This document shows, piece after piece, positions 13,161-63,318 of a DNA stretch of 64,000 bases; the stretch's first letter is position 1; the number at the start of each line of letters is the position of its first letter. This DNA comes from Escherichia coli (GTDB lineage Bacteria; Pseudomonadota; Gammaproteobacteria; Enterobacterales; Enterobacteriaceae), in the NCBI RefSeq assembly GCF_046105845.1, contig NZ_CP151004.1; one strand, 5' to 3'. The notes below the pieces were generated by a model, which ran no database searches, was not told the DNA's origin, and worked only from the letters and a program-made list of their open reading frames with translations. The position numbers and the translations under genes were made by a program.

Positions 13161-13494
<334 letters not shown>

Positions 13495-13495
13495 C

Positions 13496-13584
13496 GTAGG
13501 CCTGATAAGACGCGCCAGCGTCGCTTCAGGCAACGGCACCGCACTTATTGTCGGATGCGGCGCGACCGCCTTATTCGACCTATA
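13496..13584. repeat. BIME: two REP (palindromic unit) elements in inverted orientation
   Basis: GTAGGCCTGATAAGACGCGCCAGCGTCGCTTCAGGC and GTCGGATGCGGCGCGACCGCCTTATTCGACCTAT resemble the E. coli REP consensus. Confidence 0.75.
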
Positions 13585-21134: not shown

Positions 21135-21492
21135 AAAGTCCTGTCCAGAAAGAAGTCGGCCTCGCAAAAATGAATAAACCCAGTTTCTCTTGCGCAACAG
21201 GTGGAGAAGTCGAATACGCAGTATGTAAAAAATGAGGCAACAGATTCACTGGGGAGGTCGCGAGGAGGCGCAATTCTACAAAATTGCGCATTTCACTACC
21301 AGTCTGGAGTCAGCCCGGATATGAACTGCAACTATTGCAAATAAAGAAATTAAGCTGGAAGGCATCACGCAATGAGGAAGATAGCCGGGTGCTGACAGTA
21401 AAAAGCAATCGTAAAATCAGCGGCAAGCCGGAAGGGTTCCGGTGAGGCGCAATGTTGCGGGGGCTTTATCCCTGGTGGCATTGGTTGCTGGA

Positions 21493-21559
21493 GAGAGAAA
21501 ACCCCCGCACGTTGCAGGTATGCACCTGACAACACCACGGGGGCTAATCTTGACTCTAG
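21493..21559 (-). ncRNA. rdlD: Rdl antisense sRNA, copy 1 (ends approximate)
   Basis: On the minus strand a CCCCCG…CGGGGG hairpin followed by UUUUCUCUC (intrinsic terminator) lies antisense to the ldr leader; boundaries inferred from the recalled ~66-nt Rdl length. Confidence 0.55.
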
Positions 21560-21609
21560 ACCACTCAAGAATAGCCGCGAAACGTTGTCATTACAACACA
21601 GGCGGCTAT

Positions 21610-21717
21610 ATGACGCTCGCAGAGCTGGGCATGGCCTTCTGGCATGATTTAGCGGCTCCGGTCATTGCTGGCATTCTTGCCAGCATGATCGTGAACTGGC
21701 TGAATAAGCGGAAGTAA
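21610..21717 (+). CDS. ldrD: Type I toxin Ldr, 35 aa (MTLAELGMAFWHDLAAPVIAGILASMIVNWLNKRK)
   Basis: 35-codon ORF encoding a hydrophobic peptide recognised as Ldr family; chromosomal position between yhjV and bcsG matches K-12 ldrD. Confidence 0.85.
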   Translation: MTLAELGMAFWHDLAAPVIAGILASMIVNWLNKRK

Positions 21718-21975
21718 CGTGTCAGACGGGCGTCAGGCTGCCGTAATGGCAATTTGCGTCCGGACCAGGCCGCAGGGATAAAACTCTGTGGCCTTTTTCG
21801 TAAGAAAAATGCAACGGTTGCAAGCGGATAATATTCTGCGGAATGCGCAGCACAGAGTGAAGAAGTGATGGATTCCGGAACAGAAAAACAGTCGTAGAAT
21901 CAGCGGCAAGCCGGAAGGGTTCCGGTGAGGCGCAATGTTGCGGGGGCTTAATCCCTGGTGGCATTGGTTGCTGGA

Positions 21976-22042
21976 GAGAGAAAACCCCCGCACGTTGCAG
22001 GTATGCACCTGACAACATCACGGGGGCTAATCTTGAACCCAA
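21976..22042 (-). ncRNA. Rdl antisense sRNA, copy 2 (ends approximate)
   Basis: Same hairpin plus U-tract as copy 1, 483 bp downstream. Confidence 0.5.
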
Positions 22043-22092
22043 ACAACTCAAGAATAGCCGCGAAACGTTGTCATTACAACTCAGGCGGCTAT

Positions 22093-22200
22093 ATGACGCT
22101 CGCAGAGCTGGGCATGGCCTTCTGGCATGATTTAGCGGCTCCGGTCATTGCTGGCATTCTTGCCAGTCTGATCGTGAACTGGCTGAATAAGCGGAAGTAA
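22093..22200 (+). CDS. Type I toxin Ldr, second tandem copy, 35 aa (MTLAELGMAFWHDLAAPVIAGILASLIVNWLNKRK)
   Basis: Paralogous 35-codon ORF; differs from copy 1 by one residue (M26L). Confidence 0.8.
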   Translation: MTLAELGMAFWHDLAAPVIAGILASLIVNWLNKRK

Positions 22201-22286: not shown

Positions 22287-23966
22287 TTACTGCGGGTAAG
22301 GCACCCAGTCGCCGCCGTTCAGGCGAACGTACGGTTTATCCTGGTATTGAATAACTACTGCATTTGAGTTCTCTGAGACCGGTGCTGTTTGTGGCAACCC
22401 ACTGGTGAGTTTTTTCCAGTCAACATTGTCTTCGGTGAAAATCTTGCCATCAAGAACGCGAACCACCAGATCGGAGATAGCCAGGAAGCTGCTCGGTTGG
22501 TCGATGACAATCGGTGCCCCCTGATGTGGTGCCTTCATGCCGAAGAATTTCACCCCAACGGGGACGTCTGTGATAGACGGGCTAGGGATATCACGTAGGC
22601 CAGATACCTGCATTCTGTCGCCCTTCAGCGCGCCGCCGTGTTCCGGCACCACGACCACCATCACTTTACGACCCGATTTCTCCAGTTCAGTAAAGAAGGC
22701 GTCCAGTTCATCAAAGAATTTCTGCGCCCGTGCTTTGTAATCCGCTGTTTTGCTGACGCCCGGATAATGGTTGCCGTCATGCAGTGGAAGCGTGTTGTAG
22801 AACGTGGCACTACGGCTGTTTTTATCTTTTTCGGTAACGTCCAGCCAGCGGTTAAGCACGGCGGTATCGTCATAAACCGGCGAACCATCAAAGCCCAGCA
22901 AAATAACCGGCAGATTTGTTTGATCCATCAATTCGGTCTGCATGCCGCCATTTTCGCGAACTTCTTTCAAAAAACCGCCGAACTGGCCGTTATGTCCCAT
23001 CATCAGGTGCTGGGTAAAGCCCAGTTTCGACAGGTTATCAAACAGATAGCAGTCGTTATTTGCCGGTTGATACAGATTAGTGTGCGAAGTCTGCCCGCAG
23101 CTGGCGCGCAGTAAACGGATCGCTGCCGGGCCACTGTAGGAGGTGGCGGAGTTAAAGTTCTTGAACTCAATATCGAAATGCGACCACAGCGGATGCGACA
23201 TTAACCCGGCGGCTTCAATATCCGACCAGGAAAGCGAACAGATATTAATCACCAGTAGTTCAAATGGCTGAGCATCAGCGGGCAGCGAAGACGGGAAGGT
23301 CGATTTACGTTTCGCCTCCGCGTTATAGAAATTATTCAGCCAGGCGTTAAGGTTCGCCGTTGTTGGCGGTGCAGTTTGTGCGGGCATATCACCCACTACC
23401 GGTGCGCCACCCGTCGCCGCAACGGTTGCCGCTGCGTTACCACCCGTCGTTGTTACAGTGGTCGTCGGTTGACCGGCTGGCCACAAGGAGAAACTTGGTC
23501 CCGCCAGGGTAAGTACGTTCAGCCATAGCAGAATGGCAACCACAAAAACGGTAATGCGAATCCATTGTGACAGGAATAACCAGGCCACTAATAAAACAAA
23601 AATGGCCCCAATCATCTGCCAGTTAATAAAGCGTGTGACAAGGTCGATTAAATAATCGGTACTGAACCCCGCCACCTGCGAACCCTGGCTCATTATGCTT
23701 TCCGGGCCAGGCAACCAGGTGTCATGCCATAACAAAGCAAAGCCGATCGGCAGGGCAATCCAGTGGCGTAAGCGATGCAGGCTGTAGCGCGGAATGGGCA
23801 TCAGCAGAAACGCGGCAAACACCAGATTGAGGAGCGGATGGAAGTTAAGATATCCCGCCCACAACAGGCCGAACTTAACCAGAAAATAGAAGTTCCAGCC
23901 GGAAAGGCCGCGCCAGTATTGCCAGAGGGAAGAAGGCATGGCGGTATTTTGCGTAAATTGAGTCAT
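22287..23966 (-). CDS. bcsG: Cellulose biosynthesis protein BcsG (pEtN-cellulose transferase), 559 aa
   Basis: 559-aa ORF recognised as BcsG (YhjU); N-terminal TM region and alkaline-phosphatase-like C-terminal domain. Confidence 0.93.
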
Positions 23967-53023: not shown

Positions 53024-54421
53024 ATGAAAATGGTCTCACGTATTACCGCGATCGGCCTGGCTGGCGTCGCGATTTGCTATTTAGGGTTATCTGGTTATGT
53101 GTGGTACCACGATAATAAACGCAGTAAACAGGCTGATGTTCAGGCATCTGCTGTCAGTGAAAATAATCAGGTTTTAGGCTTTCTCCGCGAAAAAGGATGC
53201 GACTATTGCCACACGCCTTCGGCAGAATTACCCGCCTATTATTATATTCCTGGCGCGAAACAGTTGATGGATTACGACATTAAGCTCGGATATAAATCTT
53301 TTAACCTCGAGGCCGTGCGTGCGGCTCTGCTGGCTGATAAACCTGTTTCGCAAAGCGATCTGAATAAGATTGAATGGGTGATGCAGTATGAAACTATGCC
53401 ACCAACGCGTTATACCGCGCTACACTGGGCGGGTAAGGTGAGTGATGAAGAGCGGGCGGAAATACTGGCCTGGATTGCAAAACAGCGCGCAGAATATTAC
53501 GCCAGTAATGATACTGCTCCGGAGCATCGCAATGAACCGGTGCAGCCCATCCCGCAAAAACTGCCTACCGATGCGCAAAAAGTGGCGTTGGGCTTTGCGC
53601 TGTATCACGATCCCCGTTTATCGGCTGATAGCACCATTTCATGCGCTCATTGCCATGCGTTGAATGCGGGGGGCGTCGATGGCAGAAAAACATCGATTGG
53701 TGTTGGTGGCGCAGTTGGGCCGATTAACGCGCCGACGGTATTTAACTCAGTATTTAACGTTGAGCAGTTCTGGGATGGTCGTGCGGCAACATTGCAGGAT
53801 CAGGCTGGTGGACCGCCGTTGAACCCGATTGAAATGGCGTCGAAATCCTGGGACGAAATTATTGCTAAGCTGGAAAAAGATCCGCAGCTTAAAGCTCAGT
53901 TCCTCGAAGTCTATCCGCAAGGTTTCAGTGGCGAAAATATTACTGATGCCATTGCTGAATTTGAGAAAACATTAATTACGCCGGATTCCCCATTTGATAA
54001 ATGGTTGCGTGGAGATGAGAATGCGCTGACGGCACAACAGAAAAAAGGCTATCAATTATTTAAAGATAATAAATGTGCAACTTGTCATGGTGGTATTATT
54101 CTCGGCGGACGTTCCTTCGAACCGTTGGGGCTGAAAAAAGACTTTAATTTTGGTGAAATTACGGCGGCGGATATTGGTCGTATGAATGTGACTAAAGAAG
54201 AGCGCGATAAATTGCGTCAGAAAGTACCCGGTTTACGTAACGTTGCACTAACGGCACCGTACTTCCATCGCGGTGATGTGCCGACGCTGGACGGGGCGGT
54301 GAAACTGATGTTGCGCTATCAGGTAGGCAAAGAGCTGCCGCAGGAGGATGTGGATGATATCGTAGCTTTCCTGCACAGTCTGAACGGGGTTTACACGCCG
54401 TATATGCAGGATAAACAATAA
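53024..54421 (+). CDS. yhjA: Di-haem cytochrome c peroxidase, 465 aa
   Basis: 465-aa ORF with haem-binding motifs CxxCH (CDYCH, CAHCH, CATCH); recognised as YhjA/Ccp. Confidence 0.93.
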   Translation: MKMVSRITAIGLAGVAICYLGLSGYVWYHDNKRSKQADVQASAVSENNQVLGFLREKGCDYCHTPSAELPAYYYIPGAKQLMDYDIKLGYKSFNLEAVRAALLADKPVSQSDLNKIEWVMQYETMPPTRYTALHWAGKVSDEERAEILAWIAKQRAEYYASNDTAPEHRNEPVQPIPQKLPTDAQKVALGFALYHDPRLSADSTISCAHCHALNAGGVDGRKTSIGVGGAVGPINAPTVFNSVFNVEQFWDGRAATLQDQAGGPPLNPIEMASKSWDEIIAKLEKDPQLKAQFLEVYPQGFSGENITDAIAEFEKTLITPDSPFDKWLRGDENALTAQQKKGYQLFKDNKCATCHGGIILGGRSFEPLGLKKDFNFGEITAADIGRMNVTKEERDKLRQKVPGLRNVALTAPYFHRGDVPTLDGAVKLMLRYQVGKELPQEDVDDIVAFLHSLNGVYTPYMQDKQ

Positions 54422-54552: not shown

Positions 54553-54631
54553 TTAAGCCTGTAATGCCTTGCTTCCATTGCGGATAAATCCTACTTTTTT
54601 ATTGCCTTCAAATAAATTTAAGGAGTTCGAA

Positions 54632-56032
54632 ATGGACCAGAAGCTGTTAACGGATTTCCGCTCAGAACTACTCGATTCACGTTTTGGCGCAAAGGCCATT
54701 TCTACTATCGCGGAGTCAAAACGATTTCCGCTGCATGAAATGCGCGATGATGTCGCATTCCAGATTATCAATGATGAATTATATCTTGATGGCAACGCTC
54801 GTCAGAACCTGGCCACTTTCTGCCAGACCTGGGACGACGAAAATGTCCACAAGTTGATGGATTTATCCATTAACAAAAACTGGATCGACAAAGAAGAATA
54901 TCCGCAATCTGCAGCCATCGACCTGCGTTGCGTAAACATGGTTGCCGATCTGTGGCATGCGCCTGCGCCGAAAAATGGTCAGGCCGTTGGCACCAACACC
55001 ATTGGTTCTTCCGAGGCCTGTATGCTCGGCGGGATGGCGATGAAATGGCGTTGGCGCAAGCGTATGGAAGCTGCAGGCAAACCGACCAACAAACCAAACC
55101 TGGTGTGCGGTCCGGTACAAATCTGCTGGCATAAATTCGCCCGCTACTGGGATGTGGAGCTGCGTGAGATCCCTATGCGCCCCGGTCAGTTGTTTATGGA
55201 CCCGAAACGCATGATTGAAGCCTGCGACGAAAACACCATCGGCGTGGTGCCGACTTTCGGCGTGACCTACACCGGTAACTATGAGTTCCCGCAACCGCTG
55301 CACGATGCGCTGGATAAATTCCAGGCCGACACCGGTATCGACATCGACATGCACATCGACGCCGCCAGCGGTGGCTTCCTGGCACCGTTCGTCGCCCCGG
55401 ATATCGTCTGGGACTTCCGCCTGCCGCGTGTGAAATCGATCAGTGCTTCAGGCCATAAATTCGGTCTGGCTCCGCTGGGCTGCGGCTGGGTTATCTGGCG
55501 TGATGAAGAAGCGCTGCCGCAGGAACTGGTGTTCAACGTTGACTATCTCGGTGGTCAGATAGGGACTTTCGCCATCAACTTCTCCCGCCCGGCGGGTCAG
55601 GTAATTGCACAGTACTATGAATTCCTGCGCCTCGGTCGTGAAGGCTATACCAAAGTACAGAACGCCTCTTACCAGGTTGCCGCTTATCTGGCGGATGAAA
55701 TCGCCAAACTGGGGCCGTATGAGTTCATCTGTACCGGTCGCCCGGACGAAGGCATCCCGGCGGTTTGCTTCAAACTGAAAGATGGTGAAGATCCGGGATA
55801 CACCCTCTACGACCTCTCTGAACGTCTGCGTCTGCGCGGCTGGCAGGTTCCGGCCTTCACTCTCGGCGGTGAAGCCACCGACATCGTGGTGATGCGCATT
55901 ATGTGTCGTCGCGGCTTCGAAATGGACTTTGCTGAACTGTTGCTGGAAGACTACAAAGCCTCCCTGAAATATCTCAGCGATCACCCGAAACTGCAGGGTA
56001 TTGCCCAGCAGAACAGCTTTAAACACACCTGA
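54632..56032 (+). CDS. gadA: Glutamate decarboxylase alpha (PLP-dependent), 466 aa
   Basis: ORF-track frame 54569..56032 trimmed to ATG at 54632 ([23 protein letters not shown]…); AGGAG RBS; adjacent to gadX, so gadA rather than gadB. Confidence 0.96.
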
Positions 56033-56400: not shown

Positions 56401-57225
56401 ATGCAATCACTACATGGGAATTGTCTAATTGCGTACGCAAGACATAAATATATTCTCACCATGGTTAATGGTGAATATCGCTATTTTAATGGCGGTGATC
56501 TGGTTTTTGCGGATGCAAGCCAAATTCAAGTGGATAAGTGTGTTGAGAATTTCGTATTAGTTTCAAGAGACACGCTTTCATTATTTCTCCCGATGCTCAA
56601 GGAGGAGGCATTAAAACTTCATGCACATAAAAAAGTTCCTGCATTACTCGTTCATCACTGTACCAGAGATATTCCTGTTTTTCAGGAAGTTGCGCAACTA
56701 TCGCAGAATAAGAATCTTCGCTATGCAGAAATGCTACGTAAAAGGGCATTAATCTTTGCGTTGTTATCTGTTTTTCTTGAGGATACGCAGTTTATACCGT
56801 TACTTCTGAACGTGTTGCAACCGAACATGCGAACACGAGTTTGTACGGTCATCAATAATAATATCGCCCATGAGTGGACATTAGCCCGAATCGCTAGCGA
56901 ATTGTTGATGAGTCCAAGCCTGTTAAAGAAAAAATTGCGCGAAGAAGGTACGTCATATTCACAGTTGCTTACTGAGTGTAGAATGCAGCGTGCTTTACAA
57001 CTTATTGTTATATATGGTGTTTCAATTAAGCGAGTTGCAGTATCCTGTGGATATCACAGCGTGTCGTATTTCATTTACGTTTTTCGAAATTATTATGGGA
57101 TGACGCCCACAGAGTATCAGGAGCGATCGGCGCAGGAATTACCGAACTGTGGCTCGGCGGCAAGTATGGCTGCGCAAGGGAATTTTTACGGCACTGACCG
57201 TTCTGCGGAAGGAATAAGATTATAG
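56401..57225 (+). CDS. gadX: AraC-family acid-resistance regulator, 274 aa
   Basis: 274-aa ORF with C-terminal AraC HTH, recognised as GadX. Confidence 0.95.
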   Translation: MQSLHGNCLIAYARHKYILTMVNGEYRYFNGGDLVFADASQIQVDKCVENFVLVSRDTLSLFLPMLKEEALKLHAHKKVPALLVHHCTRDIPVFQEVAQLSQNKNLRYAEMLRKRALIFALLSVFLEDTQFIPLLLNVLQPNMRTRVCTVINNNIAHEWTLARIASELLMSPSLLKKKLREEGTSYSQLLTECRMQRALQLIVIYGVSIKRVAVSCGYHSVSYFIYVFRNYYGMTPTEYQERSAQELPNCGSAASMAAQGNFYGTDRSAEGIRL

Positions 57226-57241
57226 AGTTTTACTCAGACAT

Positions 57242-57347
57242 AAAAAAAACCCGGCATAGGGGACCGGGAAGAGGATAGTCTGCCGTCTCCAGACTAATAA
57301 ACCGTTATAACACTCCCTGTTGGCACGGGAAACTTTGTGCTCTCAGT
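57242..57347 (-). ncRNA. gadY: GadY small RNA (antisense to the gadX 3' UTR)
   Basis: Minus-strand sequence ACTGAGAGCACAAAGTTTCCCGTGCCAACAGGGAGTGTTATAACGGTTTATTAGTCTGGAGACGGCAGACTATCCTCTTCCCGGTCCCCTATGCCGGGTTTTTTTT matches recalled GadY and ends in a hairpin plus U8 terminator. Confidence 0.85.
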
Positions 57348-57593
57348 AAGTTAAATATAACTTTTACTGGAAATAAGATCAGCCATTTTTTTATAAACAT
57401 AAGCTATACGCTGTGCGAAAATATATTCGTGCTGCATTTACTTATTATCAATTAACTGTTATGCAAAACTACTTTGTGGATAAATTTTGGTCCTACCAAA
57501 TCTGGCAGTTTTTGCGCTAAGAAACAGTCTGGCATCATTTCATTAGTATACTGAAATTGAAATAATCGCAGTAATGAAATATAAGGGATAGTC

Positions 57594-58322
57594 ATGACTC
57601 ATGTCTGCTCGGTGATCCTCGTTCGTCGTTCATTCGATATTTATCATGAACAGCAAAAAATATCGTTGCACAACGAGAGTATCCTGTTACTGGATAAAAA
57701 TTTGGCAGACGATTTTACGTTTTGTTCACCGGATACGCGACGACTGGATATCGATGAGCTGACAGTTTGCCATTACTTACAAAATATTCGTCAGATACCA
57801 CGCAATTTAGGGTTACATAGCAAAGACCGTCTGTTAATTAACCAGTCACCCCCCATGCCGCTGGTGACGGCGATTTTTGATAGTTTCAATGACTCTGGGG
57901 TAAATTCGCCGATACTGAGCAAAATGCTCTATCTTTCCTGTTTATCGATGTTTTCTCATAAGAAAGAACTGATCCCCTTACTTTTCAATAGTATCAGTAC
58001 TGTTTCAGGAAAAGTTGAACGCCTTATTAGCTTTGATATCGCTAAACGTTGGTATCTGCGCGATATCGCGGAAAGAATGTATACCAGCGAGAGTCTCATC
58101 AAAAAAAAGTTGCAGGATGAAAATACCTGTTTCAGTAAAATATTACTCGCCTCCAGGATGTCGATGGCCAGACGATTACTCGAGTTACGTCAAATTCCTC
58201 TGCATACTATTGCGGAAAAATGTGGCTATAGCAGTACGTCGTACTTTATAAACACATTTCGACAATATTATGGTGTAACGCCACATCAGTTTGCGCAACA
58301 TTCGCCAGGTACCTTTTCCTGA
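57594..58322 (+). CDS. gadW: AraC-family acid-resistance regulator, 242 aa
   Basis: 242-aa ORF with C-terminal AraC HTH, recognised as GadW. Confidence 0.95.
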   Translation: MTHVCSVILVRRSFDIYHEQQKISLHNESILLLDKNLADDFTFCSPDTRRLDIDELTVCHYLQNIRQIPRNLGLHSKDRLLINQSPPMPLVTAIFDSFNDSGVNSPILSKMLYLSCLSMFSHKKELIPLLFNSISTVSGKVERLISFDIAKRWYLRDIAERMYTSESLIKKKLQDENTCFSKILLASRMSMARRLLELRQIPLHTIAEKCGYSSTSYFINTFRQYYGVTPHQFAQHSPGTFS

Positions 58323-58466: not shown

Positions 58467-58748
58467 ATGTTTGGGATTATTAAGCTGACAATTCATACGA
58501 TTACGGGAATGTGGGTCAGTATTGTGTTGTTTAAATTGATGACGAATGGCTGGAGTGGTTTCTACTTTCAGTGCTGTGTACTAAGCCTGGTATTCCTGAC
58601 GGTTAGCTGGTTGTTGAGTGGTGAATGGTTAGCAGGAAAGAGTAAGGCTGAATCCTCACGTTCAACCTTACTCTCATTTACACGTTACGCTTTTTTAAAG
58701 CGGGCAAAGAGATGTTCCACTACAACGAAAAAGACCGGAACGAAGTAA
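58467..58748 (+). CDS. Hypothetical 93-aa hydrophobic small protein (candidate only)
   Basis: ATG at 58467 preceded by AGGAGG at 58449-58454 (12-nt spacer, longer than optimal); two hydrophobic segments; last 64 nt overlap the mdtF 3' end on the opposite strand. Confidence 0.2.
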
Positions 58749-61700
58749 ATTGCCAGCACTGTTGCGGCAAACATCCCGCCCATCACGCCGGTACCTACCG
58801 CGTTTTGCGCGCCAGAACCGGCACCATGACTGATAACCAGCGGCAGCACGCCGAGAATAAAGGCCAGAGAGGTCATCAGGATTGGGCGTAAACGCATTCG
58901 CGCCGCTTCGATGATCGCCTCTATCGGCGTTTTCCCTTCTTTCTGCATCATCTCAACGGCAAATTCGACAATCAGGATGGCGTTTTTGGCGGAAAGCCCG
59001 ATGGTGGTCAGCAAACCAACCTGGAAGTAGACGTCATTACTTAAGCCGCGTAGATCGGTGGCCAGTAATGCGCCAACGACGCCTAACGGTACAACCAACA
59101 TCACCGAGAACGGAATTGACCAGCTCTCATAAAGTGCGGCGAGGGCGAGGAACACCACGACCAGTGAAATGGCATACAGCGCGGGAGCCTGGTTTGAGGA
59201 TAACGCTTCCTGATACGACAGTCCGGTCCATGAGTAGCCGACGCCTGCCGGAAGTTTAGCGACCAGGTCTGCCATAAATTTCATGGCGTCACCGGTACTT
59301 TTCCCGGCCGCCGCTTCACCTAAAATCTCCATTGACGGGATGCCGTTGTAGCGTTCCAGTCGCGGTGAACCATAGGTCCATTCGGTAGACGAATAGGCAG
59401 AAAGCGGTGCCATCGTGCCAGAGGCGTTGCGTACATACCACTGGTTGATGTTATCCGGCAACATACGGAACGGCGTGCCTGCCTGGACATACACTTTTTT
59501 CACCCGCCCCTGGTTGAGGAAGTCGTTCACGTAGCTGCTGCCGAAGGCGGTGGAAATTGTCTGGTTGATATCAGACAGCGCCACACCCATTGCCTCGGCT
59601 TTCGCGGCGTTGACGTTCACTTTGAACATCGGTGTATCTTCCAGGCCGTTCGGGCGTACCCCGGTGACTTGATTCGGTGATTGCGCTGCCAGTGATAATA
59701 GCTCGTTTCGCGCCTGGGTCAGTTTTTCGTGCCCCAGGTTGCCGTTGTCCAGCAGTTCCATATCAAAACCTGACGCGGTACCCAGTTCAGCCACCGCAGG
59801 TAAGTTGAACGGGAAGACGACGGCTTTATTGATACTGCTTAACGCAATCATTGCCCGCTGAATGATCGCGGTAACCGAGTTTTCCTCACCGACACGTTCA
59901 GACCACGGTTTGAGGCTGATAAACGCCAGACCGTTGTTTTGCCCCTGGCCGCTGAAGCCAAAGCCGCCAACGGTAAACACCGACTGAACATTATCTTTCT
60001 CTTTAGTCAGATAATAATCCGTCACCTGTTGCAGCACTTTCGTGGTGTTAACCATGGTGGCACCGGAAGGTAACTGCGCGGTGGTCATAAATACCCCCTG
60101 ATCCTCTTCTGGTAAGAAAGAGGTCGGCGTACGCAGGAACAGCACCGCCATCCCGGCGCAAATCAGCAGGTAGACCACCATGTAGCGACCGGTACAACGC
60201 AACAGCGAGCGGGTGCTATCGGTATAGTGCTGAGTTGATTTTTCAAACAGCGTGTTGAAGCGTGCGAACAGGGCGTTAGGTTTATGACCGCCTTCCGGCG
60301 CGGCTTTCAGAATGGTGGCGCACAGGGCAGGAGTCAGGCTCATTGCCACAAATACTGAAAGCAGCATGGAGGAGATCAGCGTGATGGAGAACTGGCGGTA
60401 GATCTCCCCGGTTGCACCGCTCATAAAGGCCATCGGCATAAACACTGCGGAAAGAACAACGGCAATCCCGACCAGCGCACGTTGGATCTGCCCCATCGAT
60501 TTATGCGTTGCTTCCTTCGGCGGTAGCTTATCTTCCGCAATGACACGCTCGACGTTCTCCACCACCACGATGGCGTCATCCACCAGTAACCCTATCGCCA
60601 GCACCATCCCGAACATAGTTAACGTGTTGATGGTGAAACCGACCGCCGACAAGATCGCAAACGTCCCGAGAATAACCACCGGTACGGCAATCGTCGGGAT
60701 GATTGTGGCACGGAAATTCTGCAAAAACAGATACATGACTAGGAAGACGAGGATGATAGCCTCAACCAGTGTTTTAAAAACTTCCTGAATAGAAATTTCG
60801 ATAAACGGCGTGGTGTCGTAAGGATAAACCGTCTTCAGACTTGCGGGGAAATAGGCTGATAAGCGGTTCAGCTCCTCTTTGACTGCCCGCGAGGTATCCA
60901 GGGCGTTTGCTCCGGTAGCCAGTTTGATGGCGATCCCGGCAGCAGGTTTGCCGTTATAGCGCGCCACGGTGGAATAATCTTCCGCTCCAAGTTCGACGCG
61001 GGCGACATCACGCAGCAGCACTTGCGAACCATCTTGCTGAACTTTCAACAGGATTTTGCCAAATTCTTCCGGCGTTTGCAGACGCGTCTGCACAATGATC
61101 GAGGCGTTTAGTTGCTGGTCTGCCGCCTGTGGCATGCCACCCAGTTGACCACCAGAAATCTGGTTGTTCTGCACCTTAATCTGGGAAATAACATCGGAAG
61201 GTACCAGATTGTATTTATTGAGTTTTTGCGGGTCCAGCCAGATACGCATGGCGTACTCGGAACCAAAGAGCTGTACGCTACCAACGCCCGCGGTACGGCT
61301 TAGCGGGTCTTTGATATTAGACGCTACATAGTCCGCGATATCGTACTGGTTGAGGCTGCCGTTATCAGAAATAAACGCCGCTACCATCAGGATATTACTG
61401 CTCGACTTATCGACGCTAATCCCCTGCTGCTGCACCGCTTCAGGTAATGAAGGCATAGCGAGTTGCAGTTTATTTTGCACCTGAACCTGTGCGATATCAG
61501 GAGATGTCCCAGTCTCGAAGGTCAGAGTGATAGAGGCATTGCCCGCCGCATCACTGGTTGAAGACATGTACATCAGGCCATCAAGCCCATTCATATTTTG
61601 CTCAATCACCTGAGTGACCGAGTCTTCTACCGTTTGCGCATCGGCACCTGGATAGGTAGCGCTGACGGTAATGGTCGGTGGCGCAATCTGCGGATACTGC

Positions 61701-61798
61701 GCAACCGGTAAGTTCATGATCGCCAGACCGCCTGCAAGCATCATAATAATGGCAAGTACCCAGGCAAAAACCGGGCGATCAATAAAATAGTTAGCCAT
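58685..61798 (-). CDS. mdtF: RND multidrug efflux transporter, 1037 aa
   Basis: 1037-aa ORF recognised as MdtF (AcrB family). Confidence 0.96.
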
Positions 61799-62980: not shown

Positions 62981-63318
62981 TTTAGTCCCTGAAAATTCTT
63001 GAGAAATAACGGTTCTTTAAATTGCGCGCGAGGAGAGATATGAGGGATTTACAGACCAGCGGCGTAGTGGGGTTGTCAGCCAGTAAGGTGGGATACAGGC
63101 ATAGTGATCGACATGGTGAGGTCAACGACAAAAAAAATGTTGCCGTTCTGCCAACAGTTCCTGCCAGCATTCGGGCAACGAAGGGTTCTACTGGTGGATA
63201 CATATACCAGGGGAATAAAGTCGTTTTAACCTCTCCTTTAGTAATCACCGGGGGTAATGAAATCAGCATCTGCATCCCTCGTCATGCCAGCCATCAATTT
63301 CAGTTGCTTATGTCCTGA

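Follow-up and report, generated by a model that had tools for sequence, protein, structure and literature searches.

The acid fitness island and the position of gadY

The window, a stretch of 64,000 nt of Escherichia coli DNA, carries the genes ccp-gadA-gadX-(gadY)-gadW-mdtF in the same synteny as K-12 (Table 1); the locus is the acid fitness island of K-12, here inverted. The gadX product scores 587.5 bits with the NCBIfam equivalog NF007432 (cut-off 500), and the RefSeq annotation of near-identical genomes agrees. On the same strand, gadW follows 368 nt downstream of the gadX stop codon; its name is taken from the RefSeq annotation of a 99.8% identical genome and from K-12, and no NCBIfam model scored above its cut-off on this protein. 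Between the two genes, the opposite strand encodes the small RNA GadY, which overlaps the gadX 3'UTR as is characteristic of its family.

To identify the RNA, the whole window was searched against Rfam 15. The search placed GadY (RF00122) at 57350–57237 on the minus strand, scoring 150 bits where the gathering score is 45 (cmscan, E = 8.3e-32), which puts the match well outside what chance would produce. The match covers model positions 1–114 of 114, and is thus not truncated, and all of its bases agree with the consensus. Moreover, the minus strand from 57347 to 57242 is identical at 106/106 positions to gadY of K-12 MG1655 (b4452), which occupies NC_000913.3 3664864–3664969 (106 nt) on the strand opposite gadW (b3515) and gadX (b3516). 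A sequence-only reading of this DNA had recognized a minus-strand match to GadY of about 105 nt, and had named alignment to K-12 gadY as the check; that alignment contains 0 mismatches in 106 nt, and the family model is matched at full length. The same reading had taken the RNA to establish the strand and identity of the locus, which is borne out by gadX and gadW lying on the strand opposite GadY, as in K-12.

Read on the + strand between 57200 and 57350, the sequence runs ...GAAGGAATAAGATTATAG, the gadX stop codon TAG (57223–57225), the 16 bases AGTTTTACTCAGACAT, a run of eight A residues (57242–57249), and CCCGGCATAGGGGACCGGG...CTCTCAGT at 57347. The minus-strand reading of the GadY stretch is ACUGAGAGCAC...CCCGGUCCCCUAUGCCGGGUUUUUUUU, in which the 5' end of the RNA is the A of ACUGAGAGC at 57347 and the 3' end is the last U of the U8 run at 57242. 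These coordinates refine two earlier statements. The interval 57226–57347 had been assigned to GadY as a whole; its larger part (57242–57347) is indeed GadY, while the 16 bases at 57226–57241 are spacer and lie outside it. Likewise, the description of GadY as antisense to the gadX 3' end holds for the 3'UTR and not for the coding sequence, with which there is no overlap; what GadY opposes is the gadX–gadW intergenic part of the dicistronic mRNA. The proposed distance of 17 nt past the gadX stop codon is accurate in that the U-run begins at the 17th base, leaving a gap of 16 nt between the stop codon and the GadY 3' end, in the window and in K-12 alike.

Table 1. Features of the gadX–gadW locus in the window. 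The last column gives percentage identity to the window across Escherichia loci.
Feature	Position	Strand	Description	Basis	Identity
ccp	53024–54421	+	ORF	ccp in near-identical strain PCN033	
gadA	54569–56032	+	ORF; annotated 466-aa start at 54632	TIGR01788 match, 692 bits	
gadX	56401–57225	+	274 aa, AraC-family acid-resistance activator; 3'UTR is the GadY target strand		
Last 326 nt of gadX					67–88%
Spacer	57226–57241		16 nt between gadX stop codon and GadY 3' end; outside GadY; poorly conserved		25–75%
GadY, full-length form	57242–57347	−	5' end 57347, 3' end 57242 after U8	K-12 identity and RF00122	98–100% (biased upward, see text)
Stem-loop 3	57250–57268	−	Intrinsic terminator hairpin, CCCGGU CCCCUAU GCCGGG	Terminator scan, MFE fold and Rfam	
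Stem-loop 2	57276–57296	−	UAGUCUG GAGACGG CAGACUA	Rfam consensus structure and MFE fold	
Stem-loop 1	57301–57347	−	5' domain; outer helix ACUG/CGGU around GCACA...CCCGUGCCAACAGGGAGUGU hairpin	Rfam consensus structure and MFE fold	
gadY promoter					88–93%
gadY −10 hexamer	57354–57359	−	TATATT, positions −12 to −7; same in K-12	Read directly from sequence	
AppY motif match	57379–57386	−	ATGGCTGA; overlaps gadY −35 region	Matched by eye	
Remaining gadW–gadY intergenic region					70–93%
gadW	57594–58322	+	242 aa, AraC family, downstream cistron of gadX–gadW mRNA		
mdtF	58685–61798	−			

In comparison with K-12 GadY (b4452; RF00122), the 106-nt sequence, the promoter, the strand relation, the 16-nt gap, and the three helices with terminator are all the same, and in the RNA itself nothing is different. 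The differences lie in the host, which is not K-12, and in the flanking sequence. The last 326 nt of gadX are 94.2% identical to K-12, as against 100% for GadY and its promoter, and the gadX–gadW intergenic region (401-nt minus-strand alignment) shows only 2 differences, a substitution and an indel of a single base, each located just upstream of the gadW start codon; GadY and approximately 200 nt upstream of it are identical.

Sequence identity, position, strand, structure, terminator, promoter elements, and strong conservation were each observed directly, as detailed here and below. We put the probability at roughly 97% that this feature is E. coli gadY, extending from a sigma-S-type promoter to an intrinsic terminator and encoding an RNA that acts on the gadX–gadW mRNA; none of the results speaks against the identification. 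GadY is already known, and here occupies its canonical place with the same sequence as the reference, in agreement with the earlier judgment that it offers no novelty. Its value is that of an annotation anchor for the gadA-gadX-gadY-gadW-mdtFE-gadE acid fitness island, whose strand and identity it establishes, and it reveals that this strain possesses an intact GadY regulatory module identical to that of K-12.

The gadY promoter

The gadY −10 hexamer is followed by TAA at positions −6 to −4 (+1 = 57347), and is preceded by a weak −35 element, read from the sequence as CTGATC with a 17-bp spacer. Sigma-S promoters are expected to combine a good extended −10 with a poor −35. The hexamer and TAA together appear to match the extended −10 typical of this promoter class, and are consistent with gadY being read from a sigma-S promoter. 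Because its −35 is weak, the gadY promoter was missed by a generic sigma-70 scan. The −35 region also overlaps the 8-bp AppY motif ATGSCWGM (PMC10057817), and the promoter region, including this motif, is identical to that of K-12. GadY is reported to require RpoS (PMC4152358). In this strain, the gadY promoter would be expected to be active.

RNA structure and terminator

The minimum free energy (MFE) fold of the 106-nt GadY (−28.6 kcal/mol) contains three helices, as in the Rfam consensus. The RNA thus comprises three stem-loops, the last of which is a Rho-independent terminator with a U-run. The sequence-only reading had described a hairpin plus U8 at this end, and both were recovered by the minus-strand terminator scan: the hairpin, at 57268–57250, has 6 pairs, 5 of them G-C, closing a loop of 7, and is followed directly by the U-run TTTTTTTT at 57249–57242. 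A GGA sequence spans the junction of stem-loop 2.

The fold of GadY is not more stable than that of shuffled sequences (z = −0.73; 42/200 shuffles fold as well), so that support for the structure comes from the family model instead of from folding energy. Nor did comparison of the window with five other Escherichia loci reveal compensatory changes; covariation support is lacking because the sequence hardly varies, and two substitutions, in E. whittamii and Escherichia sp. E1V33, weaken GadY pairs.

Proposed action on the gadX–gadW mRNA

Transcription of gadY would start at 57347 and run to the intrinsic terminator, producing an RNA of 105/106 nt with three stem-loops. Species of 105, 90, and 59 nt are reportedly formed, as Opdyke et al. 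are said to have described in 2004. Because of the cis arrangement, GadY is perfectly complementary to the + strand transcript from the 17th nt past the gadX stop codon onward. In stationary-phase or acid-stressed cells, GadY would pair with the gadX–gadW mRNA, with RNase III and at least one further activity cutting the duplex within the complementary region. Once separated, the gadX and gadW parts of the mRNA would be stabilized and accumulate to higher levels, and the raised GadX would increase expression of the glutamate-dependent acid-resistance genes (gadA, gadBC, gadE).

This model follows published work on GadY, from which its expression, RpoS dependence, Hfq binding, duplex cleavage, and effect on GadX would be expected to extend to this strain; it also agrees with the sequence-only reading, which had named a cis-antisense arrangement directing the processing of this transcript. 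A passage in PMC4152358 describes GadY as a cis-encoded antisense RNA whose pairing leads to cleavage that separates the gadX and gadW cistrons and stabilizes both products, and stabilization of the gadX mRNA by GadY is also reported elsewhere (PMC10057817). GadY binds Hfq, and activates gadA, gadB, and gadC through GadX (PMC11300174). With regard to the nuclease, PMC10783499 is inconsistent, naming RNase E in the text and RNase III in a figure legend; we follow the RNase III statement, with which the title of Opdyke 2011 agrees. According to a passage in PMC3919570 that cites Opdyke et al. 2011, an rnc mutant still cleaves the GadY–gadXW duplex, for which reason another double-strand-specific activity is proposed there.

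Conservation of GadY and its flanks

GadY and its promoter, taken together as 154 nt, are present in 5412 of 5426 complete E. coli genomes and are at least 99% identical in 5379; a match is absent from the other 14. The element is always chromosomal and has a median copy number of one; as there are 5418 places among the 5412 genomes, a few genomes carry two GadY places. When the stretch is extended to 601 nt, so as to take in the neighboring coding ends (3' of gadX, 5' of gadW) and the remaining intergenic sequence, 99% identity is reached in only 339 genomes.

Among the 25 RefSeq E. coli genomes listed, in which the GadY match has 99–100% identity, no feature is annotated under the match. The gene is annotated in K-12 MG1655, and its absence from the annotation of the listed non-K-12 genomes is a pipeline gap and not a biological difference. 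Recognition of gadY from raw sequence, where RefSeq leaves it unannotated, was therefore the correct call.

To extend the comparison across species, a single scan of species-representative genomes was conducted with a pattern of 20 specified GadY bases, in which the helix 2 stem was left free. The scan recovered five loci, all of them in Escherichia (E. whittamii, two assigned to E. coli, and two further species), and GadY carries 0–2 substitutions in them, with a single-base insertion in one genome. Conservation falls away directly past the GadY U-run, into the spacer (Table 1). A modest additional result, covering window positions 56900–57650, is that GadY stays nearly invariant while the sequence on either side of it diverges fast. 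The identity of GadY in this comparison is biased upward, since the loci were chosen by exact GadY matches: 20/106 positions are identical by construction, and diverged copies are missed.

A purely cis-antisense RNA keeps its complementarity under any mutation, yet GadY is 98–100% identical among these selected loci while its flanks are 67–93% identical. As complementarity is automatic, such near-invariance indicates constraints beyond complementarity. One explanation is that the main selected function of GadY is exerted in trans, by titration of CsrA and/or Hfq-dependent pairing with unlinked mRNAs such as sdiA, and that its cis effect on gadXW is secondary. Such trans roles are in print: Parker 2017, as cited in a passage of PMC10057817, links titration of CsrA by GadY to PGA-dependent biofilm formation, and pairing of GadY with sdiA is described in PMC11300174. 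GadY also contains GGA motifs, at the stem-loop 2 junction (UGGAGA) and in CAGGGAG. Were this explanation true, the whole 106 nt of GadY would be constrained by trans partners that are not yet fully mapped. However, double constraint on overlapping transcripts explains the conservation equally well: the structure, Hfq site, and terminator of GadY would be maintained along with the processing sites of gadXW. Moreover, trans effects of GadY have been seen mostly on overproduction, whereas both genetic and biochemical evidence directly supports the cis mechanism (PMC3919570, PMC4152358). We regard a primarily trans-acting GadY as unlikely, and retain the reading in which GadY acts on the gadX–gadW mRNA. 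The contrast in conservation between GadY and its flanks is modest and fits the published hints of trans roles; the GadY finding as a whole raises no new question.

Other readings of the conserved block

The hairpin at 57250–57268 is palindromic, and so also forms in the + strand transcript. Together with the lack of a RefSeq feature here in the non-K-12 genomes listed, this could suggest that the conserved block is simply a gadX 3'UTR with a bidirectional terminator, and that the minus strand holds no separate RNA gene. We consider this very improbable, and rejected it on two grounds. Firstly, the terminator scan called no intrinsic terminator on the + strand at the GadY hairpin; the hairpin on that strand is followed by AAGAGGATAG without a U-run (AAGAGGAUAG after the hairpin), and U8 occurs on the minus strand only. 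Secondly, the promoter (−10 hexamer, TAA, and AppY motif) is intact and equal to that of K-12, where the GadY RNA has been demonstrated. The missing + strand terminator instead fits transcription of gadX reading through into gadW, which would give the dicistronic target of GadY.

That the minus strand codes for a small protein instead of, or besides, the GadY RNA is scarcely credible and was also rejected: the sole ORF overlapping GadY, a 31-aa ATG ORF (57400–57305, minus strand) that covers its 5' part, begins 53 nt upstream of the transcription start at 57347, such that the RNA does not contain the whole ORF, while an ORF search found none of at least 20 aa within 57347–57242, and both Rfam and the K-12 annotation treat GadY as a non-coding RNA.

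Comparison with other regulatory RNAs

GadY resembles other chromosomal cis-antisense RNAs whose duplexes are processed by RNase III, such as the type I antitoxins OrzO/zorO and Sok/hok, as well as lambda OOP/cII-O, in forming a perfect duplex with an mRNA that is cut inside the paired region (PMC3919570). In those systems cleavage represses the target, whereas GadY-directed cleavage constitutes positive regulation, with both cistrons stabilized (PMC4152358). Binding of Hfq by GadY (PMC11300174) is also unusual for a cis-antisense RNA.

A second comparison is offered by GadF (b4718; Rfam ES205), likewise an sRNA of the acid fitness island that ends in a hairpin and U-run. Unlike GadY, which is antisense to its neighbor, GadF lies between gadE and mdtE and shares the strand of gadE, and is therefore a sense, 3'UTR-type RNA. 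The window contains an ES205 match at 63130–63201 on the minus strand (105 bits), between gadE (stop 63319) and mdtE (start 62980) and on the strand of both. On its 3' side this match stops 150 nt short of the mdtE start, where gadF (b4718) of K-12 also has its 3' end; the ES205 match thus represents the 3' part of the GadF sRNA.

Other RNA families were also detected elsewhere in the window. A tRNA-Pro(CGG) gene (13161–13237, + strand) is directly followed by an RtT-family match (13272–13405, + strand, 102 bits), and a match to the REP-derived naRNA4 family lies at 13499–13580 on the strand opposite the tRNA, just above its gathering score. The RtT and naRNA4 hits are probably matches to repeat elements downstream of proK. 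Furthermore, two tandem Ldr-type toxin ORFs, ending at 21717 and 22200, occupy the + strand (window 21442–22200), and their C-terminal 35 aa read MTLAELGMAFWHDLAAPVIAGILAS[M/L]IVNWLNKRK. Each ORF has its own match to the rdlD antisense RNA on the minus strand, at 21496–21561 (87 bits) and 21979–22044 (90 bits), and the Ldr/rdlD pairs adjoin bcsG (22287–23966, minus strand). Only one ldrD/rdlD pair occupies this place in K-12 MG1655, and this type I toxin-antitoxin module is therefore duplicated in the present strain.
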